64,000 nucleotides of DNA from an uncultured Clostridia bacterium (GTDB lineage Bacteria; Bacillota; Clostridia; TANB77; CAG-508), in contig CALXNM010000004.1 in the NCBI GenBank assembly GCA_944389745.1, forward strand, positions 795 through 64,794, read 5' to 3'. A model generated the notes under the pieces. The model did no database searches, was not told where the DNA came from, and saw only the letters and a program-made list of their open reading frames with translations. Shown in pieces: positions 15,400-47,523 of the stretch. Position 1 is the first letter of the stretch; every line of letters begins with the position of its first letter. A program made the translations under genes and the position numbers.

Positions 15400-15428
15400 G
15401 TGCCATTGGGGACAGACCCCTTTGGCAC
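15400..15428. repeat. REP-like palindromic element (GTGCCA..GGGG-N5-CCCC..TGGCAC family), copy 1
   Basis: GTGCCATTGGGGACAGACCCCTTTGGCAC lies immediately 3' of giant gene 1. Confidence 0.6.
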
Positions 15429-15435
15429 AGTTTCT

Positions 15436-18400
15436 TTATTTATTTTTCTCTTTTTTGTTGTTTTTTATAATTATTTTTCTTAAAACAACTAACGCTATTA
15501 CAGCTACAGCAATTATTGAAATTACTATTACAGCACCATTTGCTTGTGGCTTACTTTCTTCGTTTGTTTCATAGTTGTAAACACTTTCTAAGCCATTTTC
15601 TTTAATTTTTGTTGTTTCTGACACAGGTGTTTCTTCTTCTCCATTTAGTATTTCATCTTCGCTGTATACTTCATATTCACCTGTATCTGCATTATATACT
15701 GTAATGTAACTGTTGTCTGCAGTTGTACTTGTATTAGTATTTGAATTTACATTTTCAGAGCTAGAGTTTCCGCTTAAATTATCTGTATTGTTAGTGCTGA
15801 TACCGTTGTTTGATGCTCCTTGCATTGCTTCTTCTACTGGTAATTTAGCAAGTTTTTCTTCTAGTTCTTTACTCTTTTGATATTCTTGCTGCTTATCTTC
15901 ATAGTCATTCCATATATTTGCAAAACTTCTAGTTAAATAATTTACTAGTCCTTCATCTGCTTTTTCGTCATTTTCATATATAACATTTCCAGTTACATAG
16001 TTGAACACAATTACTTTTCCAGTATTGTATAGCACCATCATTTCAGGCTTTTCTACATCTGTATTTTGAACTATTTGATTAATGTTACTACTTAAGAAAT
16101 TATCTGGATATTGTAGCATTTCTTTTAAGTCTACTAATTCTCCTGCACTGTTTAATATTGTTTGATACTCTTTGTTGTTATAATTATCTACAATACTGTT
16201 TCCAATTTTCATATCTACATTACTTGCTATTGCTGATAACTCATCATTTCTTACATTATATATTTGTGATTTTATATTGTCATTTACTGTACTATATGTC
16301 CCATATGTTTCTATGATATTTCCGTTGTAGCTGTATGTGTGAAGTGGAGTTGTAGTTTGTTGTAATGTTGTAGTAACCGCCTCAGTTGATTTTTCATTTG
16401 TGCTATCTTCTGCATTTGTTACCGTTTGTTTTGTTGCAATATCCACAATTTGTCCACTACTACTTAATGCATAACCATCATATACATTTACATAGTCTCC
16501 TAATTGACCTTCTCCGTTTATGTATAAGCTTGTGCCTAATAAGTATGCGTTGTTGCTACCTACTAAGCTTGCTTCACTTCTTACTTCATCTGGTGTAATT
16601 GTAATTGTTTCATTGTCTTGTCCGTTTGTTAGCTTTATTTCTAATGTGTCTTGGTAATTGTATTTGAATGTATATGTTTTCTTAGTTAAGTCTACCTTTT
16701 CTTTTTCTTCACCATTTACGTAATATGTAAAGCTTACTCCTTCTGGAATATCACTAAAATCTATATTTATCTCATCTACCTTTGTTGGATACACTTTATA
16801 ACTTGGTAATGATTCTAGTCTTTGTGTTGATATTCCATTTGCATCAGCTAAATTGTTTGTGTTATTTCTTGTTCCATTAGCATTATCATCGTTTTCATCA
16901 TCAACACTTAATGAGTTTAATTCTGTAATTTCTGGGTCTGTTGGTAAGTCTACACCAGTTTGTAATTCTGGCAAGTATAAAAACGGATTTTTAGGATATT
17001 TTCCCTCTGACAGTGATGCATAATTCCAATATGTTGTTCCTAGTCCAATCTTACTAGAATATGTATTTTGTTTCTCTAAATCTGATCTTACTAAATATTG
17101 TTCGTCATCAATATTATCATTCGTTGCATAAACATAATTTCCGTTTAAAGTACTATACCTATACACATATGTATTCGTTATATAATCATTTTCGTCCGGT
17201 CTTCCACCTATTATTAGTGAACTAGTAGAAGTATTATCACTTATAACATCAGCTTCTATATAATTATTATTATATAACGGTTGTTCTCTATAGATTGCCG
17301 CAGTAATATCACCTATTAGCCCTCCAGCTTTAGTTGGTGCAGTAATAGAACTATCAATTACCATTGAATCTTGAACACTAACAGTTTTAGTTAAAGATGT
17401 CATACCAGTATTATTAATTCCTCCAAAAACCCCTCCGGCAGAACTTACATCTGCACTTACCTTAACATTTATGCTTAACTGCCCGACTCTCCCCCAAGAA
17501 GAAAATCCGTAAACACCACCACAATTCGATGCTCCTCGAATTACACTTTTAGCAATATATCCTTGATATAAACTCGATCTACCGTCACCTACATTATAGC
17601 CAACAACACCACCTGCATTAACACCATTACTATCAACGACAACACCATCTACCTGAAAGTCCCAAAGCGAAGTCCAAGAAACACCTCCAATAAGTCCTCC
17701 AGTACCTTGTGAATTTGCATTAGCAGATGTCACTTCTGTATCATACACAGCCCACTCTGAATTTACGCCGCCATTAAGTAAACCAGCAATACCTCCCGTG
17801 CTAAACGCTCCAGATATACGACATAATTGCACTTCTATATTTTTTCTGTTACTACTACCTTCATACGCATTAACATATCCAAATATACCACCAACATTAG
17901 TATGTCCATCAACCTCTGTATTAAAAGCTTTAAAATCCAAGAAACTACCATATTGACTTCCACCTAAGATTCCAGCTACATAATTATTACCTACTATATT
18001 TGAATTTTCTATATACAAATTTTCCATATTAAAATGACTACCAAATTGATATCCTATAATTCCTCCAATATAATTACTTCTTCCATTAATCGTTATATCA
18101 TTACCATTTATATTATGAATATAAGTACTTATTGGAATAGAAATATAGCCTACTAGTCCACCGATGTAACCCTGCCCATTAATCGTTATACTATACAGAT
18201 TCACATCATAGATTTTTCCTGAAGTCATCCCCCCTATCATTCCCATATAACTTATACCATTTGCTTCAATAGTAACCTTATTAAATCTTAAATTTTCTAC
18301 GTCTCCATTATTACTTGCAATCACTCCAAAATAATTTCCAGAACCAGCTGTATTTGTTAAAGTTATATTTTCAAACCCTATATTTTTAATGCTTGTTTTT

Positions 18401-21400
18401 ACATTGTTTATTAATCCTGTATTTGCTGTACTATATGATAACTCCATATTCTTTAATGTATATACTTTATTTTCCGCCTCTAACCTATTTACATTTATGT
18501 TATTTTTTATATTCGTTTTGCCTGCAAAATCTATATCTGCCATTAATCTATAGTTTTGATAAGTATCTTCTTCTATACTTTGCCAATCTTCATATGTATA
18601 TATTTCTTTATAGAATTGTACTGGTATCTCATTTTCCACTTCTTTTATTTGCTCTTCCTCTTCATTTTCCATCTTGTATTTTATTCCAGTTAGTTTATAG
18701 CTATCATAATATCTTGTTGGTGTAACACGCACTGTTATGCTTGTTATTCCGTTTTGCGTTACATTTCTTGTTATACCTGCAACTATCATATCCTCTATTT
18801 CTATATTTGTTATTTCTACTTCTTCTGGATTATTTATTCTTATTGTTATTTCTGCTTCCGTTGTATTTGGTTTTATTGCTTCTAGACTTTCTATTACTAA
18901 ATCTATATTATCTATTTCTTTATTTTCATCCACATATATATCTTCTTGATTTGGTAATAGTTCTGTTCCTTCTATATTATATAACTTTGGTAATATTCCT
19001 TCGCCTTTACCATCATAATTATAATTATCACCTAAATCCAAACTTAAAACCTCTTCTTCATTTAAAAGAGTAGCTCCTTTTTCTTCGTTATTTTCATAAC
19101 CGTTTAATAACTGTTTTTCATATGCATAGTTATTACTTACTGTATCAGAATTGTTTCCAATTGTTCTATTTAAAATATCCAATCCCGATGTTGTGTATAT
19201 GTTTCCTATACTTAAATTATTTGTAATAGATTCTAACCTACTACCAGAGTATAAACCAATTATTCCTCCAACATTACTGTTTGTTGTTGAAATATTTACT
19301 TTTGAATAACAATTTTCTATGTTTGCAGTTCCTATTGCTCCTATAATTCCTCCTACGTTTAAGTTAACTGAATTAATTTGCCCTTCTGCATAACAGTTTC
19401 TTATTTTATTTGAATTGTCACCTAAGCCAGCTATTCCACCTATTCCAGAACTTACACCTTTTGTATCATTTATATATAATCTTTTTACATAACAATTTTC
19501 TATAGTTGTGTTAGCAATTTGTCCAACTAATCCTCCTATTATAACGTTACTCAAATTGCCACTTACCGTTATTTTGACATTATTAGCCGAACAATTTTTT
19601 AATGTTGAATAAACTGAATCATGCAATATTGCTCCAGCTCCCCAATTACCTGTTTTTGTTATAGTAACATTTGACATATGCACATTATCAATTGTTGAAC
19701 CATTTTGAGCGTGCGTTATTAGTCCCCCATTCGACGTTACTTCTTGATTAAAATTGGTTATAAATAAATTATTTAAAGTTCCATATAAATTACCAATAAA
19801 TCCGATATCACTGTTCATATTTATATTTGATATAGTATGTCCATTTCCGTTTATTATTCCGTTTATATTTGGCAAATTTATAGTATTTCCTTCATTTATA
19901 AAATTTAAATCAGACATAAGCATATAGTTTTCAGTAGGTGAATCATTTATAGCCTTCCAGTCATTTACATTCCATATTTCTTTATATAAATCTACATTTA
20001 TTACTCTTTCCCCTGCATCATATGGTCTCGTATATGAACTTCCAAATGCACCTTTTACAGTAATACTTTGTACATCATAACTTGATACACGTATTACTGG
20101 ATTTTTTAATTCTGCTATTACAGTACTTTTTCCATTACTATATTCTTGTGATAGTATCTCTACATCTAAGTTTGCTATTTTTATTTCGCTTATTTGCTCT
20201 GCTGATGGATTATTTACGCTGAACTGTACTTTTACCGTATCAGTTCCTTGTTCTAATACCCTTGTTGATAATATATCCGGTAAATCAGCATCTTCTACTT
20301 CTGGCAATTCTATATACTCTTGTGCAGGCATAACATCTGGCATATATACCTGCGGATAATACCCCCCATTCACGAGCTCATCTACAATAAAAGCTTTGTT
20401 TCCATTTATTAATTGATTCTGGTATACAACATCCCATAGCGATAATTTATTACCTTTTATTTCAAGCTCATCTGTATATATTGCATCAGAAAAATAGTAA
20501 TTGTTATATATTTTTTTAGAATTCTTATTTTGTATATTAGGGCCATAATCCAAATTATCTTTAGGTTTTTCCTCTATAGAGTAAACATTTTGAATTGTTG
20601 CATTACCATCATTTGTATAAACTAAATTTGATACTTGGTTAGAACCATTAATGTAATTAATATTTATAATTGTAAACATGTTTTCTATTATTCCATTACC
20701 AGTATTATATTGCGTCATTCTCACAACACCTGATGCATTACCTGACTCTAACATATATCCATTTCTTATAGTTCCATAATTTTGATAGTTCATACCTGAA
20801 ATTGAATATGCATCTTTTAAATTAATAACAAAATTTTCTATAAATCCATAATTATTGTAAGCCAATAACCAAAAATCCGTATTTTCGTTTTGGTTTGTTT
20901 CAATTAAATTTAATTGTACATTCTTTAAAGTTCCATAATTTTCAAGAGTTAATCCTCCATGTAATATTGTAGCGACTGAATTATTTATCTTTAAATCAAA
21001 TATTAAATTCTCTAAAGCCCCTTTGTTTCCTATTCTATGAAATATTTGAGAATTATTACTTAAGTCTCTTTTTAAAGTTTTACCATTAAAATCGATTCTT
21101 CCTTCAAATGGAAGTCCATAATATCCAAATCTATACTGAGTTCCAGAAACTCCTGATAAATCTATATCATTTAATACTATATATTCTCCATATGGTTGTA
21201 TTTTTAGAAAATCATTTAAATTTCTTATTCCCTTTATTTCTTTTCCACCTTCTGTTGAAAATTCTTGTGAGTCTAATCCATAATATCTATCTGATATTTT
21301 TACCAATAATTCTATTCTATAATTTGCATCTGGTTCTAAATTGTAAGTTTTTTGTACATTTTCTACTATATTGCTTTCGCCTATTTCTTCGTAACGAATT

Positions 21401-24400
21401 TCTTGAACTTGTTCATCATTTTTGTAGATTCTTATGTAATAGTCATTAGTGATTATTTCATTTCTTGCATCAATCACTGTTACTAATACATTTACGTTAT
21501 AATCATATTTAAATTCTTCGTAATCTGTTTTTCTATTGCCAAGTTCTGCTTGTAAATCTTGTATTTCTACTTTTGTACTATCTGTTACAACCCTAAATCC
21601 TATATATCCTGTTTTACTCAATGTTGTTGTATAACTATATTCTTTCCAATCATTACTTAAATCATTTATCGTATAATATGTTGTATAACTAGTGTTATTA
21701 AAATCCTCATTATCTTTTTCTATAATTTGAATATTGGTATTATAACTTGTTTTAGCTTTAAAACTTATTGTTATTTCTTGTCCTAAATATTTACTTAAGT
21801 CATAGTATGTACAACTTCTATCACTTGTTAAACCTTTTAGAGTTAAAATTTTTGTATTTTCATTATAATTTAAAACATATTCGTAACTTGTATTAAAACA
21901 TCTTTCGTACCAATTTACCTTAGATGATACATCAATTAAGTTTTTACCTGTTGGTGTCTTTTCTAATCCTATTAAGTCTAAGTTACCACTTATACCAGTT
22001 TCTGTTACTATTTTTATTTCTTTTAATATATAATCTGCCTCGTATGTTGCATCTGTACTTCCTATGTTGTATTGCGGTACATATACTATTATTCTATATG
22101 TTTCATTTGGTGTTAGGTCTTCGTATGTTTTTCTTTCATATTCTGCATTTGTTGGCATTTCACTTAAATCTATTAATTTATTGTCCTTATCTCTTACTTC
22201 TATTCTTACTTGATTTGTTAATACTGCATTATCTATATCTTCTATTCTTATGTCTAAGTCTATCATTGTTCCTATTACAAATTGGTTTCTTACTTGTACT
22301 TCTGCTGGCATTTTTAGTGTTATTATCTGTTCTAGATTTTGTTTATCTTCTACTACTGTTTCTATCGAGCCTTGTTTTACTGTAGTTATTACATCTATTC
22401 TGTATATTGTGTTTGAATTTAATTGGTCTAAGTTTAATTCTATTTCTTCGGATACTTTTAATTGTTCTACTTGTTCATCTGTTAATGTTATTCTTTTTAT
22501 TTCTGTTTCTTCTGGCTCTTCTCCTTCATCATACTCTATATTTTTTCCTTGGTCATAAATTACGACTTCTACTTTATTTAGAATAGCTACTAGTCTTGCA
22601 TCTGTTTGATTTGTATCTATACTTATTCCAAGTTGTATACTATCTTGTTTTACTTCTTTATCATCTATATGTACTTGCATGTATCCTAGTGAAGCTAATG
22701 GTCTTGTTACAAAACTTCCTCTTCCTAGTTCTGCATTTTGTTGTTTTCCATCTCCATTTTCTAGATTGTAATCTCCATAAATTATGATTTGGTAGTATCC
22801 ATTCGGATCAAGGTCATTGAATGTTAATTTCTCTTTTTCATTGCTTTTGTTTAAAGTACCTTGCTTTACTACATCTCCACTTTGGTTTGTTATTTCATAT
22901 CTATAATTTTCTAGTTTTACATTGTCCTTGTTTGTTAAAGTAATTTCAAGGTCTACTTCTGTAACATCTTGTTTTGTTACTCTTATACTTGCACTTGGTG
23001 CTTGTTTTGATGTTATTGTTTCTCCTGTGTTGTTTTTTTCTTTTAACTCGTTGCCGTATCTATCAAATGCTGTGATTTCGTATTTTATTTTGCTGTTTGA
23101 TGTTAGGTTTTCGCTTGTTTGGAAGGTTATTTCTTTTCCAGCTTTTAATTCGTCTATCTGGTCATTTGTTAGTCTATATGCTGCATCTCCTATCTCTACT
23201 TGTAACCTTGAAATTCCTTTTATTACTTCTTCATTTAAATCATTGTTTAGTTTTAGGTTTATTAGTTCTATTTTGTTTGAATATATTTCTCCATTTTGGA
23301 AACTAAAGTCTATTGTTCCTAATGCACTTATTGGTTTTGTTTTTACTGTTCCGTTGTAGAATTCTTCTTCTTTCTCTACACCGTCTTCATCATAGTAGTA
23401 AAATACTCCTCTTATCTCAAACTCTGTATCTGGTTGTAGGTTTGTTATTTCTATGTTTCCTGTTTGTGTTGCTAGTGCTCTTCTATTTAATCTTCCGTCT
23501 AAATATATTTCAAATATTACTCCTCTTGATATTACACCTGCTCTATCTGTTACTGATAGATTTGTGCTTATTGTATATACACCTGATTCAAAATCTGTAC
23601 AGCTTACTGTTGGTTTCTCCCACATACCCTCTTGCCACTCTTGTTCTTCTGGTTCAGTTGTTTCTATTTTATTTGTGTTGCTTTCATTATTTTCTTTATG
23701 CGTATTGTTTTCTTCTGAAGTTGTGTTCTCTGCTATTTCGTTTGTTTCATTTACTACTTCTTCTTTATTATTATTTTCTTCAACTTGAATAATCCCTAGT
23801 CTCTCTAAGAATGTCTTATATATTAATTCTTCTTCATTAACTTCTATCTTAGAATCCATGTCTATATCGTTTATTCTTTTATACTGCATATACCAAATTT
23901 GCACATCAGTGTCGTCTTGCATCTCATAATATGCTATATAATCTTCTGTAAAGTATATATTACTGAATTCTTTTATTTCATAGCTGTTTGATGCTGTATT
24001 TATTTTTATTTTTCCTACGTTTGTATAAATTTCATCTTCACTTTTTAAGAATATGTACTTGTTTCCATCTGCTCTTGTTATATCCGCTCCGTTATACATT
24101 ACTCCATCTGTCATCATGAAGTCCGGGTACCCTTCTACTTCTTCATAATTTACTGTTATTAATCTAGTAGTTGGTCCGATGTTTAGCAAAGCGTTTCCCT
24201 CATTTATGTATATTGGATAGTTTATATCTATTTCTTTTTTATCATCTTCTCCAATGTAATATGAATTTAATCTTTTATATAATAAGTCATTTTCGTGCAC
24301 TTCAACTAAGTCTAAGTATGGATTTACATTAGACACATCGCTATTTTTTAGGTTCTCTACCATTGATTTACCTTCTACTGCATATCCACTATATGTTATT

Positions 24401-24588
24401 ATCATTTCTGGTGCATATCTTAAAAACACATAATATATAATAGCTATTATGATTAACATTATAATTAAACCTATTAAAATAAATGTAGGTAAATTTTTGG
24501 TATTTATTCTCTTAGTTTTATTATTTAGTCCTTTATTTAATTTTCTATTTTGTTTTGCCTCATTATTTCTAATTTGTCTCTTTTTCAC
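15436..24588 (-). CDS. Giant surface protein paralog 1 (3050 aa): N-terminal signal-anchor, Ig-like repeats, three GLUG-like repeat blocks, C-terminal TM plus basic tail
   Basis: An uninterrupted 9.15-kb ORF. TM helix LPTFILIGLIIMLIIIAIIYYVFL. Many G-G-[LIV]-[LIVF]-G repeats (YIGGLVGY, YIGGIIGY, NVGGIFGY, AGGLIGD). C-terminus ANGAVIVISIIAVAVIALVVLRKIIIKNNKKEKNK. GTG start after GAGGT. Confidence 0.9.
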   Translation of the reverse strand: MKKRQIRNNEAKQNRKLNKGLNNKTKRINTKNLPTFILIGLIIMLIIIAIIYYVFLRYAPEMIITYSGYAVEGKSMVENLKNSDVSNVNPYLDLVEVHENDLLYKRLNSYYIGEDDKKEIDINYPIYINEGNALLNIGPTTRLITVNYEEVEGYPDFMMTDGVMYNGADITRADGNKYIFLKSEDEIYTNVGKIKINTASNSYEIKEFSNIYFTEDYIAYYEMQDDTDVQIWYMQYKRINDIDMDSKIEVNEEELIYKTFLERLGIIQVEENNNKEEVVNETNEIAENTTSEENNTHKENNESNTNKIETTEPEEQEWQEGMWEKPTVSCTDFESGVYTISTNLSVTDRAGVISRGVIFEIYLDGRLNRRALATQTGNIEITNLQPDTEFEIRGVFYYYDEDGVEKEEEFYNGTVKTKPISALGTIDFSFQNGEIYSNKIELINLKLNNDLNEEVIKGISRLQVEIGDAAYRLTNDQIDELKAGKEITFQTSENLTSNSKIKYEITAFDRYGNELKEKNNTGETITSKQAPSASIRVTKQDVTEVDLEITLTNKDNVKLENYRYEITNQSGDVVKQGTLNKSNEKEKLTFNDLDPNGYYQIIIYGDYNLENGDGKQQNAELGRGSFVTRPLASLGYMQVHIDDKEVKQDSIQLGISIDTNQTDARLVAILNKVEVVIYDQGKNIEYDEGEEPEETEIKRITLTDEQVEQLKVSEEIELNLDQLNSNTIYRIDVITTVKQGSIETVVEDKQNLEQIITLKMPAEVQVRNQFVIGTMIDLDIRIEDIDNAVLTNQVRIEVRDKDNKLIDLSEMPTNAEYERKTYEDLTPNETYRIIVYVPQYNIGSTDATYEADYILKEIKIVTETGISGNLDLIGLEKTPTGKNLIDVSSKVNWYERCFNTSYEYVLNYNENTKILTLKGLTSDRSCTYYDLSKYLGQEITISFKAKTSYNTNIQIIEKDNEDFNNTSYTTYYTINDLSNDWKEYSYTTTLSKTGYIGFRVVTDSTKVEIQDLQAELGNRKTDYEEFKYDYNVNVLVTVIDARNEIITNDYYIRIYKNDEQVQEIRYEEIGESNIVENVQKTYNLEPDANYRIELLVKISDRYYGLDSQEFSTEGGKEIKGIRNLNDFLKIQPYGEYIVLNDIDLSGVSGTQYRFGYYGLPFEGRIDFNGKTLKRDLSNNSQIFHRIGNKGALENLIFDLKINNSVATILHGGLTLENYGTLKNVQLNLIETNQNENTDFWLLAYNNYGFIENFVINLKDAYSISGMNYQNYGTIRNGYMLESGNASGVVRMTQYNTGNGIIENMFTIININYINGSNQVSNLVYTNDGNATIQNVYSIEEKPKDNLDYGPNIQNKNSKKIYNNYYFSDAIYTDELEIKGNKLSLWDVVYQNQLINGNKAFIVDELVNGGYYPQVYMPDVMPAQEYIELPEVEDADLPDILSTRVLEQGTDTVKVQFSVNNPSAEQISEIKIANLDVEILSQEYSNGKSTVIAELKNPVIRVSSYDVQSITVKGAFGSSYTRPYDAGERVINVDLYKEIWNVNDWKAINDSPTENYMLMSDLNFINEGNTINLPNINGIINGNGHTISNINMNSDIGFIGNLYGTLNNLFITNFNQEVTSNGGLITHAQNGSTIDNVHMSNVTITKTGNWGAGAILHDSVYSTLKNCSANNVKITVSGNLSNVIIGGLVGQIANTTIENCYVKRLYINDTKGVSSGIGGIAGLGDNSNKIRNCYAEGQINSVNLNVGGIIGAIGTANIENCYSKVNISTTNSNVGGIIGLYSGSRLESITNNLSIGNIYTTSGLDILNRTIGNNSDTVSNNYAYEKQLLNGYENNEEKGATLLNEEEVLSLDLGDNYNYDGKGEGILPKLYNIEGTELLPNQEDIYVDENKEIDNIDLVIESLEAIKPNTTEAEITIRINNPEEVEITNIEIEDMIVAGITRNVTQNGITSITVRVTPTRYYDSYKLTGIKYKMENEEEEQIKEVENEIPVQFYKEIYTYEDWQSIEEDTYQNYRLMADIDFAGKTNIKNNINVNRLEAENKVYTLKNMELSYSTANTGLINNVKTSIKNIGFENITLTNTAGSGNYFGVIASNNGDVENLRFNKVTIEANGISYMGMIGGMTSGKIYDVNLYSITINGQGYIGGLVGYISIPISTYIHNINGNDITINGRSNYIGGIIGYQFGSHFNMENLYIENSNIVGNNYVAGILGGSQYGSFLDFKAFNTEVDGHTNVGGIFGYVNAYEGSSNRKNIEVQLCRISGAFSTGGIAGLLNGGVNSEWAVYDTEVTSANANSQGTGGLIGGVSWTSLWDFQVDGVVVDSNGVNAGGVVGYNVGDGRSSLYQGYIAKSVIRGASNCGGVYGFSSWGRVGQLSINVKVSADVSSAGGVFGGINNTGMTSLTKTVSVQDSMVIDSSITAPTKAGGLIGDITAAIYREQPLYNNNYIEADVISDNTSTSSLIIGGRPDENDYITNTYVYRYSTLNGNYVYATNDNIDDEQYLVRSDLEKQNTYSSKIGLGTTYWNYASLSEGKYPKNPFLYLPELQTGVDLPTDPEITELNSLSVDDENDDNANGTRNNTNNLADANGISTQRLESLPSYKVYPTKVDEINIDFSDIPEGVSFTYYVNGEEKEKVDLTKKTYTFKYNYQDTLEIKLTNGQDNETITITPDEVRSEASLVGSNNAYLLGTSLYINGEGQLGDYVNVYDGYALSSSGQIVDIATKQTVTNAEDSTNEKSTEAVTTTLQQTTTPLHTYSYNGNIIETYGTYSTVNDNIKSQIYNVRNDELSAIASNVDMKIGNSIVDNYNNKEYQTILNSAGELVDLKEMLQYPDNFLSSNINQIVQNTDVEKPEMMVLYNTGKVIVFNYVTGNVIYENDEKADEGLVNYLTRSFANIWNDYEDKQQEYQKSKELEEKLAKLPVEEAMQGASNNGISTNNTDNLSGNSSSENVNSNTNTSTTADNSYITVYNADTGEYEVYSEDEILNGEEETPVSETTKIKENGLESVYNYETNEESKPQANGAVIVISIIAVAVIALVVLRKIIIKNNKKEKNK

Positions 24589-24681
24589 TATACCTCAAAT
24601 CCTTTCTGCTTTTGATTTTCTATAAACTTTTCTCTAAAGTATTTAATAGTTTCTAATTGACTTTTATGAGTTTTCACACGC

Positions 24682-24747
24682 AAAAAGAATAGACCATATC
24701 ACCATAAATGTTTCTTTTAAAAACATTTACAATAATACAGTCTATCC
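24682..24747 (-). terminator. Leader terminator L0: 27-bp hairpin plus U-tract upstream of giant gene 1
   Basis: On the minus strand: GGATAGACTGTATTATTGTAAATGTTT, loop TTAAAAG, AAACATTTATGGTGATATGGTCTATTC, then TTTTTG. All 27 positions pair when G-U wobbles are allowed. Confidence 0.7.
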
Positions 24748-24822
24748 CTGTAGTTACTTTATCTATATATTTTGAAATTTGAGGCATGCTTAATAGAATT
24801 CTTCTTGCGAAGAATCTGTTAT

Positions 24823-24888
24823 CTAATAGTGTGCCCTCTCTCTCTCTCTCTCTCTCTCTAGAGCCATGCGGTTTTCAAGCTTCATCAT
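24823..24888 (-). CDS. Leader uORF0 (21 aa, MMKLENRMALERERERERAHY) containing the (AG)12 tract
   Basis: An AAGGAG RBS lies upstream of ATGATG. In the assembled repeat length the frame stops at a TAG about 75 nt before the L0 hairpin. Confidence 0.35.
   Translation of the reverse strand: MMKLENRMALERERERERAHY
24836..24859 (-). repeat. Dinucleotide SSR: (CT)12 on the plus strand, (AG)12 in the transcript sense
   Basis: Direct count of the tract. Confidence 0.95.
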
Positions 24889-25065
24889 TTCTTTCTAGTC
24901 TCCTTTTCTTCTTTTTCCTTGTTTTTCAAGCATTTTCACTTGTTTTTATGTGTTAATTCGAATTTTGATTTTTCTATTTCTAATTTTGTTTTCTTTTTAT
25001 TTTTTATTTCATTTTGTATTATTTTTTACTTAATAATCCATCCACTTTTTTCTAACTTTTAAACG

Positions 25066-25132
25066 CAAAAAAGGATAGGCTATATTGCCATAAGCGTTTT
25101 GTTACAAACATTTACAGCAATACAGTCTATCC
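25066..25132 (-). terminator. Leader terminator L1 (homologous long hairpin plus U-tract)
   Basis: GGATAGACTGTATTGCTGTAAATGTTT...AAACGCTTATGGCAATATAGCCTATCC, then TTTTTG. There are two mismatches in about 27 bp. Confidence 0.65.
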
Positions 25133-25304
25133 CTGCAATTACTTTATTTATATATTCAATTCCAGCCACGCTTAATAAGATTCTTCTTGCGAAGAATCTA
25201 TTGCTTAATAGTGTACATATTCTTTTCCAGTTCTTTTGGTAGGAACATAGTGTGTGTGTGTGTGTGTGTGTGTGTACAGTACCAAGGCTTTCAGGCTTTA
25301 TCAT
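25080..25304 (-). CDS. Leader uORF1 (74 codons) containing (AC)13; it reads through into the 3' arm of terminator L1
   Basis: AAGGAG lies 9 nt upstream of the ATG. It translates MIKPESLGTVHTHTHTHTLCSYQKNWKRICTLLSNRFFARRILL.... The TAG stop at 25080-25082 lies inside the hairpin 3' arm. Confidence 0.4.
   Translation of the reverse strand: MIKPESLGTVHTHTHTHTLCSYQKNWKRICTLLSNRFFARRILLSVAGIEYINKVIAGIDCIAVNVCNKTLMAI
25250..25275 (-). repeat. Dinucleotide SSR: (GT)13 on the plus strand, (AC)13 in the transcript sense
   Basis: Direct count of the tract. Confidence 0.95.
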
Positions 25305-25374
25305 TTTTTTAGTCTCCTTCTTTTTATCTCAGACAACTACAGTTTAAGGTTTATTTACTCAAACTGATATTTTC

Positions 25375-25402
25375 ATTATAACATAACTATTTAAAATTGA
25401 AA
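25375..25402 (-). promoter_or_regulatory. Leader promoter P-L1
   Basis: On the minus strand: TTTCAA, a 16-nt spacer, then TGTTATAAT (extended -10). The same -10 occurs in L2 and L3. Confidence 0.55.
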
Positions 25403-25465
25403 TACTATTTCATAATTTTTTTATATTTTTTTTGTATTTGCAATTTTAAATTATGTTAATTAGTC

Positions 25466-25494
25466 GTGCCAAAGTGGTCTGTCCCCATTGGCAT
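25466..25494. repeat. REP-like palindromic element, copy 2 (degenerate)
   Basis: GTGCCAAAGTGGTCTGTCCCCATTGGCAT lies 3' of the ATPase gene. Confidence 0.5.
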
Positions 25495-25510
25495 CATTAG
25501 CACATATAAA

Positions 25511-26830
25511 TTATTTTATCTCTTTAATATAATTTTCTGTATTCCATATTGCATATAACGGAATATTTAATATTTTATCGTCCAATTTTATATTAAGTAA
25601 TGAATATCGTATCGCTAATTTTGGATTATATTCTTTCATATAAACTTTTAAGCTTTGTGCTTTCACATTGATTCCTGCTTTTGCTTCAACTGGTATTATT
25701 AGATTTTTATATGCATATACGAAATCTATTTCACTCTTAAAGTCGTTTGACCAATAATATATTGTATTTATCTTTTTTATATTGCTTAATTCTTGAAGTA
25801 CAAATTGTTCTGTAAGTAAGCCGTTGAATTCGCTATATATAGCATCTTTTTCAATTATTGTTTCGTATGGTAATTCGCATAATACCCTTAGCAATCCTAC
25901 ATCTAACAAATAAATTTTAAATGCTTTTAAATCTTCATACGCTTTTAGTGGTTGTTTATCTCCACATTTTACTCTATTTACTAACCTTATTAATCCAGTA
26001 TCTTTTAACCAATTAATTGAATTTTCGTATTCTCTTGCTCTTGCTCCATCTTTTACAACTCCATATACAAATTTTCTATTTTCTTTTGCTAGTTGTGATG
26101 GTATACTATTCCATACATATTGTATTTTTGTTGCTGTACTGCTATCTGTATGTTTTGAAAAATCTCTTTCGTAAGCTTCCAATATTCCCTTCTGCACTCT
26201 TTCAACTGATTCAAAATCCTTTTCAGATAACCAAGTTCTTACTGCTCTTGGCATTCCACCTATAACAAAATATTTTTTTAGGTAATCTTTTAATTTGTCT
26301 GTTATTATATCTGGTAATTGTTCCAATTTGTTGCTTTTTATTATATTTATTAATTCTTGTTCATCGTTAGCAATTAAAAATTCTTCAAAATCTAATGGCT
26401 GTAGCTCTAAAAAATCTACTTTTCCTACTGGAAACGAAACTTTATCATGAAGAAATACCCCCAGTAAACTTCCTGCACAACAGATAACATATTCTGGTGC
26501 TTCTTCGGCAAAATATTTTAAAGATGTAAGTGCTCTTGGTAATTCTTGTATCTCATCAAATATTATTAATGTTTTTTCTGGTTCAATTTTCTTATGATGT
26601 ACAGCTGATAAGTATTCTATAATTCTCTTTGGTTCTATATTTCCTTCAAATAAATTGTTGATATTTCCCGCATTTTCAAAATTTATATATAATACATCAT
26701 CAAAACATTCTTTTCCAAATTCTTGTAGAATCCATGTTTTGCCAACTTGTCTTGCTCCTTTTAGAATTAGAGGTAATCTATCTTTCTTATCTTTCCATTC
26801 TTTTAACTCTGATATAAGTTTTCTATACAT
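25511..26830 (-). CDS. AAA+ ATPase, COG1373-like (AAA domain plus DUF4143-like C-terminal region)
   Basis: Walker A (KGARQVGKT) and Walker B (LIIFDEIQ). The likely start is the ATG at 26830 (MYRKLISELKEW), 11 nt after AGGAG; the track start at 26851 is a TTG extension. Confidence 0.6.
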   Translation of the reverse strand: MYRKLISELKEWKDKKDRLPLILKGARQVGKTWILQEFGKECFDDVLYINFENAGNINNLFEGNIEPKRIIEYLSAVHHKKIEPEKTLIIFDEIQELPRALTSLKYFAEEAPEYVICCAGSLLGVFLHDKVSFPVGKVDFLELQPLDFEEFLIANDEQELINIIKSNKLEQLPDIITDKLKDYLKKYFVIGGMPRAVRTWLSEKDFESVERVQKGILEAYERDFSKHTDSSTATKIQYVWNSIPSQLAKENRKFVYGVVKDGARAREYENSINWLKDTGLIRLVNRVKCGDKQPLKAYEDLKAFKIYLLDVGLLRVLCELPYETIIEKDAIYSEFNGLLTEQFVLQELSNIKKINTIYYWSNDFKSEIDFVYAYKNLIIPVEAKAGINVKAQSLKVYMKEYNPKLAIRYSLLNIKLDDKILNIPLYAIWNTENYIKEIK

Positions 26831-26872
26831 ATTATTATCAACTCCTAACAATTTTTATAGAAATTTATTAAA

Positions 26873-27098: not shown

Positions 27099-30000
27099 TT
27101 ATGCTTTTCTTTTATGCTGTTTTTCCTTTGTGTTATTTTTCTTGCTGTTTTTATATACCACTTTTCTTAAAACAACTAATGCTATTATGGCAACTGCAAT
27201 TATTGAAACAACTATTATTGCACCATTGGCTTGTGGTTTTTCTTCGTTTGTATCATAGTTGTAAACGCTTTCTAGTCCATTTTGTTTTATCTTTTCTGTT
27301 TCTGATACTGGATTTTCATCTTCTCCATTTAGTATTTCATCTTCACTGTATACTTCATATTCTCCTGTATCCGCATTGTACACTGTAATGTAGTTGTTGT
27401 CTGAAATTGTATTACTTATGTTATTGTTAGCTGTTGAGTTTGTGTCTGTATTAGCATTAGCTAAAATATTGTCACTGTTGTTCAAAATAGTATTAGTTGC
27501 ACTTGAAGTGCCAGCTTCATTTTTATTGTTTTCTTGCATTGCTTCTTCAACTGGTAATTTAGCAAGTTTTGCTTCTAATTCTTTACTCTTTGCATATTCT
27601 TGCCCCCTATCTTCATAGTCATTCCATATATTAGAAAAACTTCTTGTTAAATAACTTACTAATCCTTCATCTGCTTTTTCTTCATTTTCATATATAACAT
27701 TTCCAGTTACATAGTTGACCACAATTACCTTTCCAGTATTGTATAGCACCATCATTTCAGGCTTTTCTACATCTGTATTTTGAACTATTTGATTAATGTT
27801 GCTAGTTAAGAAGTTATTTGGATATTGTAGCATTTCTTTTAAGTCTACTAATTCTCCTGCACTGTTTAATATTGTTTGATACTCTTTATTGTTGTAATTA
27901 TCTACAATACTGTTTCCTATTTTAATATCTACATTATTTGCTATTGCTGAAAGTTGTCCGTTTCTTATGTTGTAAATTTGTAGTTTTACACTTCCGTCTA
28001 TCATACTGTATGTTCCATAAACTTCAATGGTACTACCTTTGTAATCGTATGTGTGAAGTGGTGTTGTTGTTTGTTGTAATGCAGTTGTAACCGTTTCTCC
28101 CGACGTTTTTTGAGTTGCAATATCCACAATTTGCCCATTACTATTTAATGCATAGCCTTCATATACATTTACATAGTTTCCTGGTTGTAGTTCTCCGTTT
28201 ATGTATAAATTTGTGCCAAGCAAGTATGCATTGTTTGCTCCAACCAAACTCGCCTCACTTCTTACAGCTTCTGGTTTTATCGTTATTGTTTCTTTATCTT
28301 GTCCGTTTGTTAGTTTTATTTCAAGTGTATCTTGGTAATTGTATTTGAATGTGTATGTTCTCTTTGCTAAATTATTAGTTGAACCCTCATCTAAATCATT
28401 ATCTAGGTCGATTGTTTCTTTTTCATCTCCGTTTACAAAGTATGTGAAACTTGCTCCTTCTGGAATATCACTAAAGTCTATATTTATCTCATCTACCTTT
28501 GTTGGATACACTTTATAACTTGGTAATGATTCTAAACTTTGTGTTGATATTCCATTTGCATCAGATAAGTTGTTTGTATTAGCTCCAGTTCCATTTGCAT
28601 TATCATCGTTTTCATCATCAACACTTAATGAATTTAACTCAGCAATTTCTGGATCTGTTGGTAGGTCAACTCCTGTTTGTAATTCAGGCTTATATTGATA
28701 TCTATCTGATATTATAGGATACTTTTCTCTTGATAATGAATTAAAGTTCCAATCTGATATAGTTAATCCAATCTTACTTAAATATGTATCTTGCCTATCT
28801 AAATCATTTCTTACTAAGTATTGATTATTTTCTATATTATCATTTGTACTATATACATGATTACCATTCAAAGTACTGTATTTATATACATATGTATTTG
28901 TTATATATCCATTTTCATCCTGTCTTCCACCTATTATTAGTGAGCCAGTAGAAGTATTTGTGCTTATTACATCTGCATCAATATAGTTGTCATAGTAGAA
29001 TGATTCTTCTCTATATATTTCGGTAGCAATATTTCCAATTAGTCCTCCCGATTTAGTTTGAGATTCAATTTCTGTGTCTAGCACCATGGATTCTACTATA
29101 TTTATTCTATATCTAGAAGCTGTCATATTAGAATTATCCATAAATCCTATTATTCCACCTGCATTACTACTTGCTTTTACTCCAGCATTTACAAACGCCC
29201 TAGTAACCCCTCCATATTTAGTCTCTCCTATAGCACCTCCAACATTCATATTGCCTTGAATTGTAGTATTACTTAAGGCACATCTATTCACAGCAATGCT
29301 CGTTACGCCAGAATCTTGCCCTCCAATAAATCCACCTACACCATTTCCATTACTTATTATTTGCGAATTCGAAACACGAGATTCCTCAACAACTGACCAA
29401 GAACCCGTTCCTATTATCCCACCTACACGTTCCGCATTTAATGAAGGTGTATTTATAATACAAGAATCCACAACACACTTAAACAAACAAAGACCAGTAT
29501 GACGTCCGGAAACACCACCAACTAATCTACTTCCTATTATATTGCAAAATTGTACTAATACGAATTGACAATAATCGGAATTGTAACCAGCAGCTATAGT
29601 CATTTGTCCAGAAACGCCACCAACTGATGAATTTCCTATTATATCAGTATTTTTCACTGTTATATTTGAAATATAACCTCTGTTAATCTCTCCAAAAATT
29701 CCACCTATATAATTTGTGCCACTTATATTAGAATCAACTATACTCAAATCACTTGTTTTTATTCCTATTCCAGCTTGATATCCTACAAACCCACCAATAT
29801 AATTTGATGTTCCTTTTATTGTTATATTTTTTCCCACTATATTTTTTTCTTCTCCTTCGCCATCTATTGATGCATATCCTACTAATCCACCAATAAAACC
29901 ATTTCCATTTATTGTTATATCTTCTAGTTCAATATTATTTATTGTTCCTGATGTCATTCCTCCAATCATTCCCAAATAATTCATTTCCTTTGCATTTATT

Positions 30001-33000
30001 GTTATGTTTGTAAAAGACAAGTTTTCTATTTGTGCATTATTACTTGCTATAACTCCAAAATAGCTTCCCGAACCTGCTGTATTTGTTAATATAATATTTT
30101 TAAATCCAATATTTTTCATGCTTGTTTTTACATTATTTATTAATCCTGTGTTAGCCGTATCATATTCAAGTTCTATATTTTTCAATGTATATATATTGTT
30201 TTCGGCTTCTAATCTATTTACTGTTATATTGTTTTTTACATTATCTTTTCCACTAAAATCTATATCTGACATCAATCTATAATTCTGATACGTTCCCTCT
30301 TCAATACTTTGCCAGTCTTCATATGTATATATTTCTTTGAAAAATTGTACTTGTATTTCTATATTTACTTCTTTCAGTTCGTCTATTTGCCCACTATTCG
30401 TTCTATAATTTATTCCAACTAATTTATAACTATCATAATATCTAATAGGTGTTGCTTCAACTGTAATACTTGTTTTTCCGTTCTGTGTTACATTTCTTGT
30501 AACTGCAGAAATATTCATATCTTCAATTTGTATTCCTGTTATTTCTTTTTCATCTGGATTTGTTATTTGTACTGTTATTTCTGCCTCTGTTGTGTTTGGC
30601 TTTCTAACCTCTATATTTTCTACTTCCAATTGCACATTAGCACCATTTTCTTCAATATATATATCTTTTTGATTCGGCAATAGGTCTGTTCCTTCTAAAT
30701 TATATAATTTAGGCAATATTCCTTCTTCTTTTTTATCATAATTATATTTATCTCCTAAATCTAAATTTATTATTTCTACTTTACTTAATAATGTAGCACC
30801 TTTTTCTTCTTCACGTACATATCCATTTAATACTTGATTTACATACGCATAGTTGTTTTCTGTAGTATCAATACGATTTCCAACTATTCTATTTAAAACA
30901 TCTAAGCCAGATGTAGTATATATTGTCCCTATACTTAGGTTATTCACAATAGTGGTTACGTCATCGCTTGAGCAAATACCGACTATTCCTCCAACATTTG
31001 CATTGGTAGTTGATATATTTACTTTAGAATAGCAATTTTCTATATTATTTGCTCCAATACTACCTATTATTCCTCCTACATTTATATTGTCAGAAACTAT
31101 GGTTCCTTCCGCATAAGAGTTTCTAATATTATTGGTTCCTTGTCCGTTACCAATTAATCCTCCAACTCCAGAACTTACTGCTTTTGTGTCAGTTATGCTT
31201 AACCCCTGCACGAAGCAGCATTCAATCGAGCCATTATTACTTAGACCAATAAGTCCACCCACATAAAGTTCATCTTGCAAACCTTCCATATTTATATTAA
31301 TATCTGTTACAGAACAATTTTTAATAACAGCTCCAGTAATGTAACTGACAATTCCTCCCACTCTTCCTTTTGATGTCTTATTTATGTTACTTGTTTTAAC
31401 GTGTACATTATCAATCGTAGAACCTACTTGAGCATTTGCAATTATCCCCCCTGTTGTACTAACATCCTGATTAAAATTATTAATATAAATATTTTCAAAT
31501 TTACCATATAAGTTTGATATTAATGTATAATTATTTGTTAAATTCAAGTTTGATATTGTGTGTTCATTTCCATTTATTATCCCATTTATTGTTCCTAAAC
31601 CAATAGTATTTCCTTCATTTACAAAGTTTAAATTGGTCATCAACATATAATTTTCTGTAGGAGAATTATTAATTTTCTTCCAGTCATTTATATTCCATAT
31701 TGCTTTATATAAATCTACATTAATTACTCTTTCTCCTTCTTCATATGGTCTCGTATACGAACTTCCAAACGCACCTCTTGTTGTAATACTTAGCACATCA
31801 TAATTTGATACACATATAACTGGATTTATTAGTTTCGCTATTACTGTACTTTTTCCATTATTATATTCTTGAGATAAAATTTCTACATCTAAGTTTTCTA
31901 TCTTTATATCACTTATTTGTTCTGCTGATGGGTTATTTACACTAAACTGTACTTTTACTGTATCAGTTCCTTGTTCTAATACTTTTGTTGATAGTATATC
32001 AGGTAAGTCTGCGTCTTCTATCTCTGGTAGCTCTATATATTCTTGTGCTGGCATTACATCCGGCATATTTAAGTGAGGGTAATAACCTTCATTAACCAAA
32101 TCATTTACTATAAATGCCCCATCACTATTAATTAGCTGATTTTGAAACTGAGCATCCCACAACGATAATTTATTTCCTTTTGTTTCTAATTCACTTGTAT
32201 ATACTTCACCTGCAAAATAATAATTGTTATATACTCTTTTAGACGCTTTACTATATATATTGGGTCCATTATTTTTATTTATATGAGTCTTTACAGGATC
32301 CACAGAGTACACATTTTGTACTGTTGCATTACTATTATTGTCACAGCAAATATTGCCCTTATCTTTTTTATTATCGCTTAAAACTTCTATCCCTACTAAA
32401 GTAAATACATTTTCAATCAATCCATTTCCATCATTCCAGGCAACAACCCCACCAACAACAAGTCCAACATTAGTGTTATTTAACATTTTTATGTTTTCGC
32501 CATATAAGTAACCATTTCGTACATCCCCATAATTCCATTTAACTACCAAGCTTACAATTGAATTTCCATAAAAAGGTTCGTCCAAACAAACAACAAAATT
32601 TTCAACCGTTCCATGATTACCACCAATTCCTAAACAAGATTCGTTATTATTTACAACTGTTGATTCTAATAGATTTATTTTTAAATTTCTTACAATTCCA
32701 TAATTTATATTAATTAAATAACCATTTATAGATGTATCAATATTGTTATTCATTTTTACATTAAAGACAATATTTTCAAGTACACCGTTTTGACCAACCC
32801 CAACAAATAGATAGCCCACATTGTTTTTATTACCTCTTGTTAAGGTTTTACCATTAAAATCTATAGTTCCCTCAATCCATATATAATAAGCATTACCAAA
32901 TCTATATTGATTTCCAGAAGCATTTGATATGTCTAAATCATTTAGTACAATATATTCTCCATATGGTTGTATTTTCAAAAAATCGTTCAAATTAAATATT

Positions 33001-36572: not shown

Positions 36573-36692
36573 TTCACATCTTTCCTTTCAGCTTTTGATT
36601 TTCTCTATTCTGCACTTTTCATTAAGTTGCTTCGTACCTTTTTCTGTAATTCATTTTTTTTTATATTCTCGCATTATTCTTTACGTACACGC

Positions 36693-36758
36693 AAAAAGGA
36701 TAGGCTATATAACCATAAATGTTTTTCCTATAAACATTTACAGTAATACAGTCTATCC
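36693..36758 (-). terminator. Leader terminator L2
   Basis: GGATAGACTGTATTACTGTAAATGTTT...AAACATTTATGGTTATATAGCCTATCC, then TTTTTG. Confidence 0.65.
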
Positions 36759-36826
36759 TTGTAATTACTTTATTTTTATATTCAATTCCAAGCACGTTTA
36801 ATAAAATTCTTCCAGCGAAGAATTTA

Positions 36827-36922
36827 TTACTTAATAATGTACATATTCTCTTCCAATTCTTTTGGTAAGAACATATTGTGTGTGTGTGTGTGTACAGCGC
36901 CAAGGCTTTCAAGTTTCGTCAT
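36827..36922 (-). CDS. Leader uORF2 (31 aa, MTKLESLGAVHTHTHNMFLPKELEENMYIIK) containing (AC)8
   Basis: The ATG frame stops at the TAA at 36827-36829, upstream of the small hairpin and the terminator. The long frame, listed in the track from an alternative TTG start, is not in frame with this ATG. Confidence 0.35.
   Translation of the reverse strand: MTKLESLGAVHTHTHNMFLPKELEENMYIIK
36878..36893 (-). repeat. Dinucleotide SSR: (GT)8 on the plus strand, (AC)8 in the transcript sense
   Basis: Direct count of the tract. Confidence 0.95.
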
Positions 36923-36980
36923 TTTTCTAGTTTCCCTTTTCTCTTTTTTGCGTTCTTCTTACTGTTATCTCCAGCTTAAG

Positions 36981-37036
36981 GTCTGTCCCCAAACATGACA
37001 ACTTTGTCTTAAAAGAGCCTGTCCCTCAAACTGACA
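36981..37036 (-). repeat. Bipartite GGGACAG repeat element embedded in the L2 leader transcript
   Basis: The minus strand reads TGTCAGTTTGAGGGACAGGCTCTTTTAAGACAAAGTTGTCATGTTTGGGGACAGACC. It is homologous to the elements at 50184-50244 and 51075-51141. Confidence 0.65.
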
Positions 37037-37041
37037 ATTTC

Positions 37042-37069
37042 ATTATAACATAATAATTTAAAATTGGAA
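37042..37069 (-). promoter_or_regulatory. Leader promoter P-L2
   Basis: On the minus strand: TTCCAA, a 16-nt spacer, then TGTTATAAT. Confidence 0.55.
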
Positions 37070-37109
37070 TACCATTTTTTTATATATTGTAAAAAATAGT
37101 ACATAAATA

Positions 37110-37372: not shown

Positions 37373-37381
37373 TCTAGTATA

Positions 37382-47365: not shown

Positions 47366-47456
47366 TTCTCATCTATCCTTTCTGCTTTTGCTTTTTATAA
47401 ATTTTCTCTAAAACATTTAGTTCAATATTATTTGTTTACTTTGCTTTTTTACACGC

Positions 47457-47523
47457 AAAAAAGGATAGGCCATATCACCATAAATGTTTCTTTTACAAAC
47501 ATTTACAGTAATACAGTCTATCC
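47457..47523 (-). terminator. Leader terminator L3
   Basis: GGATAGACTGTATTACTGTAAATGTTT...AAACATTTATGGTGATATGGCCTATCC, then TTTTTTG. 26 of 27 positions pair, including G-U wobbles. Confidence 0.7.

Follow-up and report, generated by a model that had tools for sequence, protein, structure and literature searches.

Giant paralogous genes and their leader cassettes

We analysed a 64,000-nucleotide (nt) stretch of contig CALXNM010000004.1 (assembly GCA_944389745.1) from an uncultured Clostridia bacterium, referred to here as the window. Its GC (guanine plus cytosine) content is about 29%, and it holds three paralogous giant genes, all on the minus strand. Upstream of the first of these, gene 1, lie two leader cassettes in series, the distal L1 and the proximal L0, each built around a dinucleotide repeat in a small upstream open reading frame (uORF) that precedes a predicted intrinsic terminator. 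Genes 2 and 3 are each preceded by a single cassette of the same family, L2 and L3 respectively (Table 1). The N-terminal 300 amino acids (aa) of the three giant proteins share 86-87% mutual identity, and the gene 1 protein has a single hydrophobic segment near either end. A Pfam search with its 3,050 aa gave no family above threshold, the best hit being a GLUG motif (E=0.0019) under its own cut-off. The N-terminal domain occurs in only 26 protein clusters and in two metagenome-assembled genomes (MAGs) of the genome collection, and JGI metagenome scans with a protein pattern and with a 25-base leader pattern both came back empty. The organism and its giant-gene family are thus rare in public data.

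Tandem Repeats Finder placed the two tracts upstream of gene 1 as (CT)12 and (GT)13 on the plus strand, both 100% perfect, exactly at the coordinates and with the motifs that an earlier sequence-only reading of this DNA had given. Beyond these, the 64 kb contain just two long dinucleotide tracts, (TG)8.5 at 36877-36893 and (GT)14 at 47641-47668, which belong to the leaders of the two paralogous giant genes. Since all four long tracts fall in homologous leaders, the pattern is not one of chance. Read on the minus strand, the L0 and L1 tracts each begin 29 nt after the uORF ATG, which is preceded by a GGAG-type ribosome-binding site (RBS), and the encoded peptides are MMKLENRMAL-(ER)n in L0 and MIKPESLGTV-(HT)n in L1. 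The four leaders (L0, 24589-24960; L1, 25040-25410; L2; L3) align with 70% mean column identity. The claim that the tracts occupy the same place in homologous uORFs stands when counted from the ATG and fails when counted from the downstream sequence, where L0 lacks about 36 nt after the tract. This segment, hairpin A, is present after the AC tract in L1-L3 and missing from L0; AG-type and AC-type leaders are therefore two cassette subtypes, not the product of a simple motif swap.

A full cassette, read on the minus strand, begins with a 33-nt promoter block ending in TGTTATAAT, followed by the GGAG-type RBS, the ATG and, 29 nt on, the tract. After the tract come hairpin A (AC-type only), a stop box (ACACTATTAAGCAATAG or ACACTATTAGATAA) that supplies one stop codon in each of two frames, the 9-bp hairpin B, a linker of about 55 nt and a hairpin of about 30 bp with U5-6. 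The giant gene starts with an RBS of its own about 90 nt beyond the cassette terminator. L0 is complete apart from the promoter block and the initial portion of the 5′ untranslated region (5′UTR). Both tracts come after TGTTATAAT and the RBS, and their distances to the start of gene 1 are 250 and 690 nt. This arrangement differs from a repeat in a promoter spacer, as both tracts follow the -10 box, the RBS and the ATG, and from a repeat within the regulated reading frame, as every uORF frame in the window stops before the start of gene 1.

Table 1. Positions in the window of the leader cassettes of gene 1, their paralogs and neighbouring features
Feature	Position	Strand	Remarks
Gene 1	15436-24588	-	regulated gene; encodes 3,050-aa protein; two paralogs in window
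L0 intrinsic terminator (predicted)	24679-24749	-	30-bp hairpin 24686-24749 plus U-run; -31.4 kcal/mol, z -10.5
L0 hairpin B	24795-24817	-	-8.0 kcal/mol, z -3.6
L0 OFF-frame stops TATTAGATAA	24819-24828	-	
L0 uORF	24823-24888	-	21 aa, short frame in this assembly
L0 hypermutable tract (AG)12	24836-24859	-	starts 29 nt after first ATG
L0 RBS AAGGAGAC	24898-24905	-	
Spacer from L1 terminator to L0 uORF	24889-25063	-	A-rich, without extended -10 box
L1 intrinsic terminator (predicted)	25064-25134	-	hairpin 25072-25134 plus U-run; -30.3 kcal/mol, z -7.4
L1 uORF	25080-25304	-	74 aa, long read-through frame; stop TAG inside terminator 3′ arm
L1 hairpin B AGATTCTTCGCAAGAAGAATCT	25178-25199	-	directly 3′ of OFF stops; -10.5 kcal/mol, z -5.5
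L1 OFF-frame stops TATTAAGCAATAG	25198-25210	-	TAA and TAG, one per short frame
L1 hairpin A	25216-25249	-	weak, -4.5 kcal/mol, z -2.0; AC-type cassettes only
L1 hypermutable tract (AC)13	25250-25275	-	starts 29 nt after ATG
L1 RBS GAAGGAGA	25313-25320	-	
Extended -10 box TGTTATAAT of L1	25375-25383	-	
L1 promoter block TAGTATTTCAATTTTAAATAGTTATGTTATAAT	25375-25407	-	only recognisable promoter for gene 1; same block upstream of L2
AAA_14/DUF4143 ATPase gene	25511-26851	-	directly upstream of L1
Gene 2, gene 1 paralog	27099-36572	-	
L2, single cassette of gene 2	36689-37074	-	promoter, (AC)8 at 36878-36893 (short frame), terminator
Gene 3, gene 1 paralog	37913-47365	-	
L3, single cassette of gene 3	47453-47779	-	promoter, (AC)14 at 47641-47668 (short frame), terminator
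MutS2 gene (MutS_V + Smr)	47914-50184	+	divergent from L3
GGGACAGRCY repeat	15409-15418, 25476-25485, 36980-37025, 50196-50241, 51084-51129	+, -, -, +, -	dispersed intergenic repeat

Reading frames and RNA structure of the cassettes

For each cassette of the window, the repeat number n was varied in silico. With n=13, as found here, the L1 uORF encodes 74 aa, and its stop codon, within the 3′ arm of the terminator, precedes the U-run by 7 nt; at n=14 it shortens to 33 aa (stop 132 nt ahead of the U-run) and at n=15 to 36 aa (125 nt ahead). L0 at n=12, its state in this assembly, gives 21 aa and a stop 136 nt before the U-run, and n=13 likewise stops early, 132 nt before it. At n=11, 14 or 17 the L0 peptide extends to about 70 aa and ends 13 nt past the start of the U-run (TGA at 24674-24676). 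L2 and L3 show the same frame behaviour, and L1 is the only cassette of the window in the long frame, with L0, L2 and L3 all short. These frames agree with the states assigned earlier, in which L1 was in the read-through frame and L0 was not.

The same rule was followed through 23 cassette entries, representing about 15 distinct cassettes from the window and its relatives, and it held in all of them: one frame enters or passes the terminator and two stop early. Relative to the U-run, the long frame ends between -7 and +46, with the exception of one locus with masked bases (L011), and the two short frames end between -124 and -144. Across 13 diverged cassettes the long frame contains 0-1 stops, confined to the terminator 3′ arm, and the other two frames contain 4-8 each. 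An open frame of 43 codons is expected in 1-2% of composition-matched shuffles per sequence.

RNAalifold, applied to the same 13 cassettes, predicted hairpin B and the terminator as the only structures. In these two elements 97.1% of alignment cells were paired, compared with 45-54% when the partners were slid by 1-3 columns. Compensatory two-sided changes were found at 7 pairs, against 0-3 in the slid controls, and the covariation score exceeded that of all 500 shuffles. Each hairpin of about 30 bp runs directly into U5-6. A conserved antiterminator alternative appeared neither in the folding of the leaders nor in the alignment of the 13 cassettes. Rfam gave no match in the leaders at the gathering score, and at E<=1 it returned only spurious sub-threshold hits to mir-335, tsr26 and snoZ185.

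Three public peptide calls depart from the usual pattern. In P0031 and P0041 what is normally a short frame (…HYVLTKRIGREYV) runs on into the peptide of the long frame (LLSKKFF…), which probably reflects a 2-nt change in the ACAC beside the stop box that would re-assign which n is ON. P0037 (105 aa; L012, about 2120-2410) is a public gene call across a leader in which TGA was read as Trp under translation table 4. We considered it as a uORF from an alternative start and rejected this, as the call is a table-4 gene-calling artefact that masks the real uORF start.

A single recognisable promoter, tandem relatives and natural tract variation

The box TGNTATAAT occurs in the window at 25375-25383, 37042-37050 and 47771-47779, and the 33-nt promoter block, allowing 3 mismatches, only at 25375-25407 and 37042-37074. 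A consensus sigma-70 scan gave 9 matches against 8.7 expected from shuffles and missed even the TGTTATAAT promoters; it was replaced by searches for the extended -10 box and the family block, which found no TGNTATAAT in 24589-25374. The window locus thus combines two predicted terminators with one family-type promoter, a layout present at four distinct tandem loci: the window and L019 together, L017, L018 and L020-L023 (three-digit handles denote loci of relatives). Each has two complete cassettes and a single TGNTATAAT, always before the distal cassette. The earlier statement that no promoter is visible between L1 and L0 therefore extends from the window to the proximal cassettes of the three other tandem loci. 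In turn, TGNTATAAT is present in every single cassette (L2, L3, L002, L009, L012, L013/L015 and L016) and at every locus where the repeat module is fused to the giant open reading frame itself (in-ORF loci, described below).

The tandem loci are diverged from one another. L017 carries (AC)13 followed by (AC)14; its DUF4143 flank is 98% and its L1 orthologue 91% identical to the window, whereas its proximal cassette is AC-type as against the AG-type of the window and the gene 5′ ends are only about 82% identical. L018 carries (AC)12 then (AG)9 and is only 78-84% identical to the window cassettes, while L020-L023 carry (AC)16 then (AG)15 or 16, with AbiE genes upstream. The last 110 nt or so of the window spacer are homologous to the 5′UTR of single AG-type cassettes, and homology with L013 spans 24999 to 24671, extending into L0. 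As L0 keeps only this 3′ part of the single AG-type 5′UTR, it has lost the part with the promoter. Homology is also plain to see between the spacers of the three AC-then-AG loci and points to a single ancient origin of the AC-then-AG module.

Tract length varies in nature at these loci. The L1 uORF peptide was found verbatim in public assemblies as P0044, whose contig is L019 (ENA ERZ28614533). L019 is an independent assembly of the window locus, and the two align over 8,225 nt without a mismatch; the sole gap, of 10 nt, falls in the L0 tract, with (AG)12 in the window and (AG)17 in L019. Both cassettes of L019 are in the long frame, and the gene caller annotated two 74-aa reading frames before the 3,050-aa gene. 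L009, L010 and L011 represent one locus in three samples, more than 99.4% identical, with (AG)12, 13 and 11; L020-L023 are one locus in four assemblies, with (AC)16 plus (AG)16, 16, 15 and 16. L012, syntenic to gene 3 beside mutS2, has (AC)17 where the window has 14, and clusters of called long-frame peptides hold (HT)3, (HT)4 and (HT)5 alleles, corresponding to n, n+3 and n+6. A search for the leader peptide family returned only 8 clusters, and every member with a fetched contig is a Clostridia leader of this kind.

The repeat unit itself also changes, with AG or AC at ATG+29 in homologous uORFs across genomes, as in MIKIANPWGS-(AG)11 of L002 and MIKPESLGTV-(AC)13 of L1. In the unpaired linker, variability at codon positions 1, 2 and 3 is 0.31, 0.17 and 0.11, the opposite of protein-level constraint. 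With third positions the least variable, the peptide is not the conserved target. The codon pattern, the exchange of AG and AC and the tract-only difference from L019 lend support to the earlier proposal that selection acts on hypermutability and not on the encoded peptide.

A second architecture is found in the sister genome OZ006978.1 (1.70 Mb), where seven paralogs (L001, L003-L008) share the module of L0, an ATG, 29 nt and (AG)n, with the common prefix ...AAAAACCGCATGGCTCTAGAGAG. These modules are fused in frame to the giant open reading frame, at about 2950-3080 of each locus. Their n values are 11, 11, 8, 14, 8, 13 and 17, and only L007 (n=13) is in frame, one of the seven. After the tract the sequence reads GCT ACA CCA TTA AAT AAC CTA CCA..., coding for a transmembrane segment, and the in-ORF reading frame corresponds to the leader long frame (ACA CTA TTA GAT AAC in L0). 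The OFF stops of the two architectures are identical, TAA/TAA in ACAC(C/T)ATTAAATAA, within the shared stop box ACACTATTAAATAA. The same assembly also has a leader-type copy, L016, with (AG)13 in the long frame, so both architectures coexist in one genome.

A serial attenuation model, its alternatives and known systems

We consider it probable that L1 and L0 are two complete, serial, phase-variable, translation-dependent transcription attenuators before gene 1. This is the interpretation of the sequence-only reading, every checkable element of which held and which the comparative data strengthen. One detail requires correction: the size of about 240 nt given for a terminated L1 RNA is too short, the distance from the -10 box to the U-run being about 300 nt. 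The long frame is taken as the ON state mainly because it is continuous in frame with the giant reading frame in OZ006978.1, in addition to the precedent of the pil1 and pil3 operons of Streptococcus gallolyticus discussed below.

We infer that the hairpins terminate transcription, that long-frame translation relieves termination and that L0 is served only by read-through. Slipped-strand gain or loss of repeat units would shift the ribosome among three frames. In the two OFF frames translation would halt immediately before hairpin B, leaving about 55-60 nt up to the terminator stem, so that the terminator could fold and transcription would end. In the ON frame the ribosome would translate into the terminator stem, in L1 as far as a stop in the 3′ arm and in L0 to a point shortly after the U-run; the ribosome in the stem would block the hairpin, and RNA polymerase would read on. 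The unusual length of the stem may widen the interval during which a trailing ribosome could prevent folding, and hairpin B could act as a pause or insulator element. Since the sole recognisable promoter lies upstream of L1, gene 1 would be fully transcribed only with both tracts in the long frame. The pair would then behave as a stochastic two-input AND gate or, with leaky terminators, as a four-level rheostat; the gate is a logical reading, and the output could in practice be graded over four levels. If all frames were equally occupied, gene 1 would be ON in about 1/9 of cells, compared with 1/3 for a single cassette. As L1 is ON and L0 OFF in this assembly, gene 1 is predicted to be silent, whereas in L019 both switches would be ON. 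The allele series recovered from metagenomes behave in line with the predictions of the model.

Several points weigh against this interpretation. The system is known here from sequence alone, in an uncultured organism, and transcription can outrun translation in some Firmicutes such as Bacillus subtilis, which would weaken ribosome-mediated antitermination. The S. gallolyticus case indicates that ribosome-mediated antitermination can work in a Firmicute (PMC3894217). A simple consensus terminator scan of 24300-25700 found 0 sites. Its rules, which count no more than 20 pairs and call for a loop of 3-8 nt and a minimum of 3 G-C pairs, are probably unsuited to AT-rich stems of about 30 bp, and we therefore do not take the result as evidence of absence. 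The distal cassette is ON at all tandem loci, an observation that we rejected as evidence; the tandem loci other than the window were retrieved through the long-frame distal peptide, so the pattern is an ascertainment bias. Finally, the AT-rich spacer may hold a weak or non-canonical promoter.

This last point underlies an alternative that we regard as unlikely, in which L0 has its own unrecognised promoter in the spacer, the cassettes are independent, L0 alone essentially controls gene 1 and L1 adds extra or occasional transcripts. The spacer is indeed very AT-rich, promoter prediction is unreliable at such a GC content, as the sigma-70 scan illustrates, and a relaxed -10 scan found AATAAT in the window and in L018 (that of the window without TG and without a -35 element) and TATAAT without TG and with a poor -35 element in L017. 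However, the positions of these hexamers are not conserved between the homologous spacers, the proximal cassettes at 4 of 4 tandem loci are without both TGNTATAAT and the 33-nt block, while single and in-ORF loci all have TGNTATAAT, and the truncated 5′UTR of L0 argues in the same direction. The state of the uORF frame could instead act after transcription, translation through the hairpin altering mRNA stability or access to the start of the main gene. A hairpin of about 30 bp could be cut by RNase III or serve as a processing site, and the uncertain coupling of ribosome and polymerase in Firmicutes would favour such a role. Against this, the 5-6 U that always come directly after the hairpin are the hallmark of an intrinsic terminator, about 90 nt separate the hairpin from the main-gene RBS downstream, with no overlap, and the S. 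gallolyticus analogue acts on transcription. We judge this explanation to be rather improbable.

Two further alternatives concern single components of the leader. L1 might be a dead relic of recombination between paralog leaders, with an inefficient terminator or an untranslated uORF, leaving only L0 to matter. Cassettes are mosaic and recombine, as in L013 with its L0-like 5′ half and L1-like terminator, and L017 pairs an orthologue of L1 with another proximal cassette. Yet the distal cassette is intact at four diverged tandem loci (promoter, RBS, ATG 29 nt before the tract, frame rule and terminator), its tracts there are uninterrupted at 12-16 units, and the L1 terminator of the window folds at about -30 kcal/mol. 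L1 would also be impossible to bypass, because it carries the only recognisable promoter, and we find a relic very unlikely. Least probable of all, to the point of being barely credible, is that the long-frame product (71-94 aa) functions as a small protein in its own right, made in a phase-variable manner, and that the hairpins are incidental. Gene callers do annotate this product in several assemblies, and the peptide looks conserved (RFFARRILL...GIDCI.VNV), but what is conserved coincides exactly with the two RNA helices, the codon positions of the unpaired linker vary in the wrong order for a protein, 1-nt indels in the terminator loop alter both the frame and the length (74-94 aa) of the C-terminal end, and the few clusters known lie, where contigs were fetched, in such leaders.

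The closest precedent for serial attenuation upstream of gene 1 is a single-cassette system. Danne et al. 2014 (PMC3894217) gave genetic proof that GCAGA repeats in the gene for a leader peptide, the long forms of which enter a terminator, switch S. gallolyticus pil1. Their proof for pil1 and pil3 included an ATG mutant, stop mutants and a terminator deletion, and the pil3 terminator was placed at -28.2 kcal/mol (PMC3894217). Like these operons, the Clostridia leaders are found in Firmicutes and combine a promoter, a small leader reading frame bearing a simple sequence repeat (SSR), a strong stem-loop terminator (here -30 and -31 kcal/mol) and genes for surface structures; short-frame stops fall tens of nt before the hairpin and long-frame stops within or after it, and tract length is polymorphic among isolates or samples. 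The two systems nevertheless share no sequence homology. The unit is an AC or AG dinucleotide here and the pentanucleotide GCAGA in S. gallolyticus, and one of three frames is long here, whereas in pil1 out-of-frame changes in either direction lengthen the peptide. The extra conserved hairpin B beside the OFF stops, the tandem cassettes behind one promoter and the multigene family of proteins of about 3,000 aa, in place of pilus operons, also set the Clostridia leaders apart. The Clostridia cassettes, documented here by their sequences, are an analogue of the genetically proven pil1/pil3 leaders rather than a homologue. The proven single-cassette precedent lowers the novelty of the proposed mechanism and raises its plausibility.

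Other known switches share part of this design. In Helicobacter pylori, sabA and other outer-membrane protein genes carry CT repeats in the 5′ coding region, and sabA has two SSRs on one gene, in the promoter and in the coding region (PMC2715451, PMC4081817). The in-ORF layout of OZ006978.1 resembles such loci, with a dinucleotide tract near the 5′ end of a surface-protein reading frame that switches the frame. In contrast, the tracts upstream of gene 1 reside in separate uORFs 250-690 nt upstream with a terminator between, and the output would therefore be transcriptional read-through and not protein truncation. Tandem riboswitches and attenuators have been described as Boolean logic gates in which two terminator platforms stand in series in one 5′ leader (PMC9481103, PMC5912903). 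Both serial platforms must allow read-through for expression, as proposed for L1 and L0, but the inputs here would be two heritable stochastic repeat-number states read by the ribosome, not ligands read by aptamers.

The leader-peptide attenuators of the trp, his and thr operons, which PMC3894217 also discusses, likewise use a ribosome on a leader reading frame to decide whether a downstream terminator forms, and the AC tract encodes (His-Thr)n. Unlike in those systems, no antiterminator helix is predicted or conserved in the Clostridia leaders, and the control variable would be the reading frame and not stalling. Amino-acid-sensing attenuation through (His-Thr)n was accordingly rejected: with (Glu-Arg)n in its place in AG-type cassettes, the leaders do not sense any one amino acid.

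The mechanism class is thus known from S. gallolyticus, where alone it has been experimentally shown, and the cassettes upstream of gene 1 would be a non-homologous variant with a serial architecture. Our literature searches turned up neither a serial pair of SSR-leader attenuators nor any mention of this Clostridia family. What is new is the family with dinucleotide repeats, the proposed serial wiring, whether AND-like or graded, and the presumed interconversion of leader and in-ORF forms. If the model holds, an uncultured Clostridia with a small genome (about 1.7 Mb) would have independently invented a pil1/pil3-type mechanism to control a family of surface proteins of about 3,000 aa. Its serial version would lower the ON fraction to the value given above and require two events to pass from OFF to ON, or would grade the output, providing a genetic analogue of tandem-riboswitch logic. 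The presence of in-ORF frameshift and leader/terminator designs in homologous sequence makes visible an evolutionary route between the two classes of contingency loci. Since the giant genes are intact in every state, ON and OFF are invisible in MAGs unless the leader is read, which is a warning for annotation.

Leader mosaics and neighbouring elements

The leaders of L013 and L015 (1900-2360) are mosaics of an L2-like promoter and 5′UTR, an L0-like uORF with an AG tract and an L1-like terminator. In L017 (447-1136) an insert of about 690 nt with two small open reading frames separates the DUF4143 gene from the L1 promoter; its sequence resembles that upstream of L2 (window positions compared, 36689-37639). 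Comparison of the leaders points to frequent recombination among paralogs. It is conceivable, though on balance doubtful, that the DUF4143-adjacent locus is an expression site, with a resident promoter and L1 as a "master" switch, into which modules of a promoterless proximal cassette and a giant-gene 5′ end are swapped among paralogs; this reading draws on two strains, the window and L017. If true, it would combine two-bit stochastic gating with antigenic variation by cassette swapping, and switches of the leader type and of the in-ORF type would turn into one another through deletion or fusion at the ACACTATTAAATAA stop box that they share.

The genes for the DUF4143 ATPase and MutS2 (Table 1) are syntenic anchors that are kept in relatives, the former in L013, L015, L016 and L019 and the latter in L012. 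Between gene 3 and the L2 promoter lie two small open reading frames (37110-37655, minus strand), with homologous small reading frames upstream of the L017 tandem leader, and L009-L011 carry a DUF4258 gene pair at the corresponding place; the small reading frames and the DUF4258 pairs may be toxin-antitoxin-like pairs. The sole Rfam match at gathering score in the window is a 6S RNA (SsrS) gene at 7463-7647 on the minus strand (RF00013, 109.8 bits).

A dispersed intergenic repeat with the core GGGACAGRCY, usually paired about 36 nt apart (…AGGGACAGGCTCTTTTAAGACAAA..TGTC…GGGGACAGAC…), has 8 core matches in the window against 0.05 expected. Its sites include positions just 3′ of gene 1 and of mutS2, the stretch from the L1 promoter to the DUF4143 gene, and the L2 5′UTR. 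It looks like a repetitive extragenic palindromic (REP) element or a miniature inverted-repeat transposable element (MITE), and it is also present in the 5′UTRs of L013, L015, L018 and L020 and in the inter-cassette spacer of L017.

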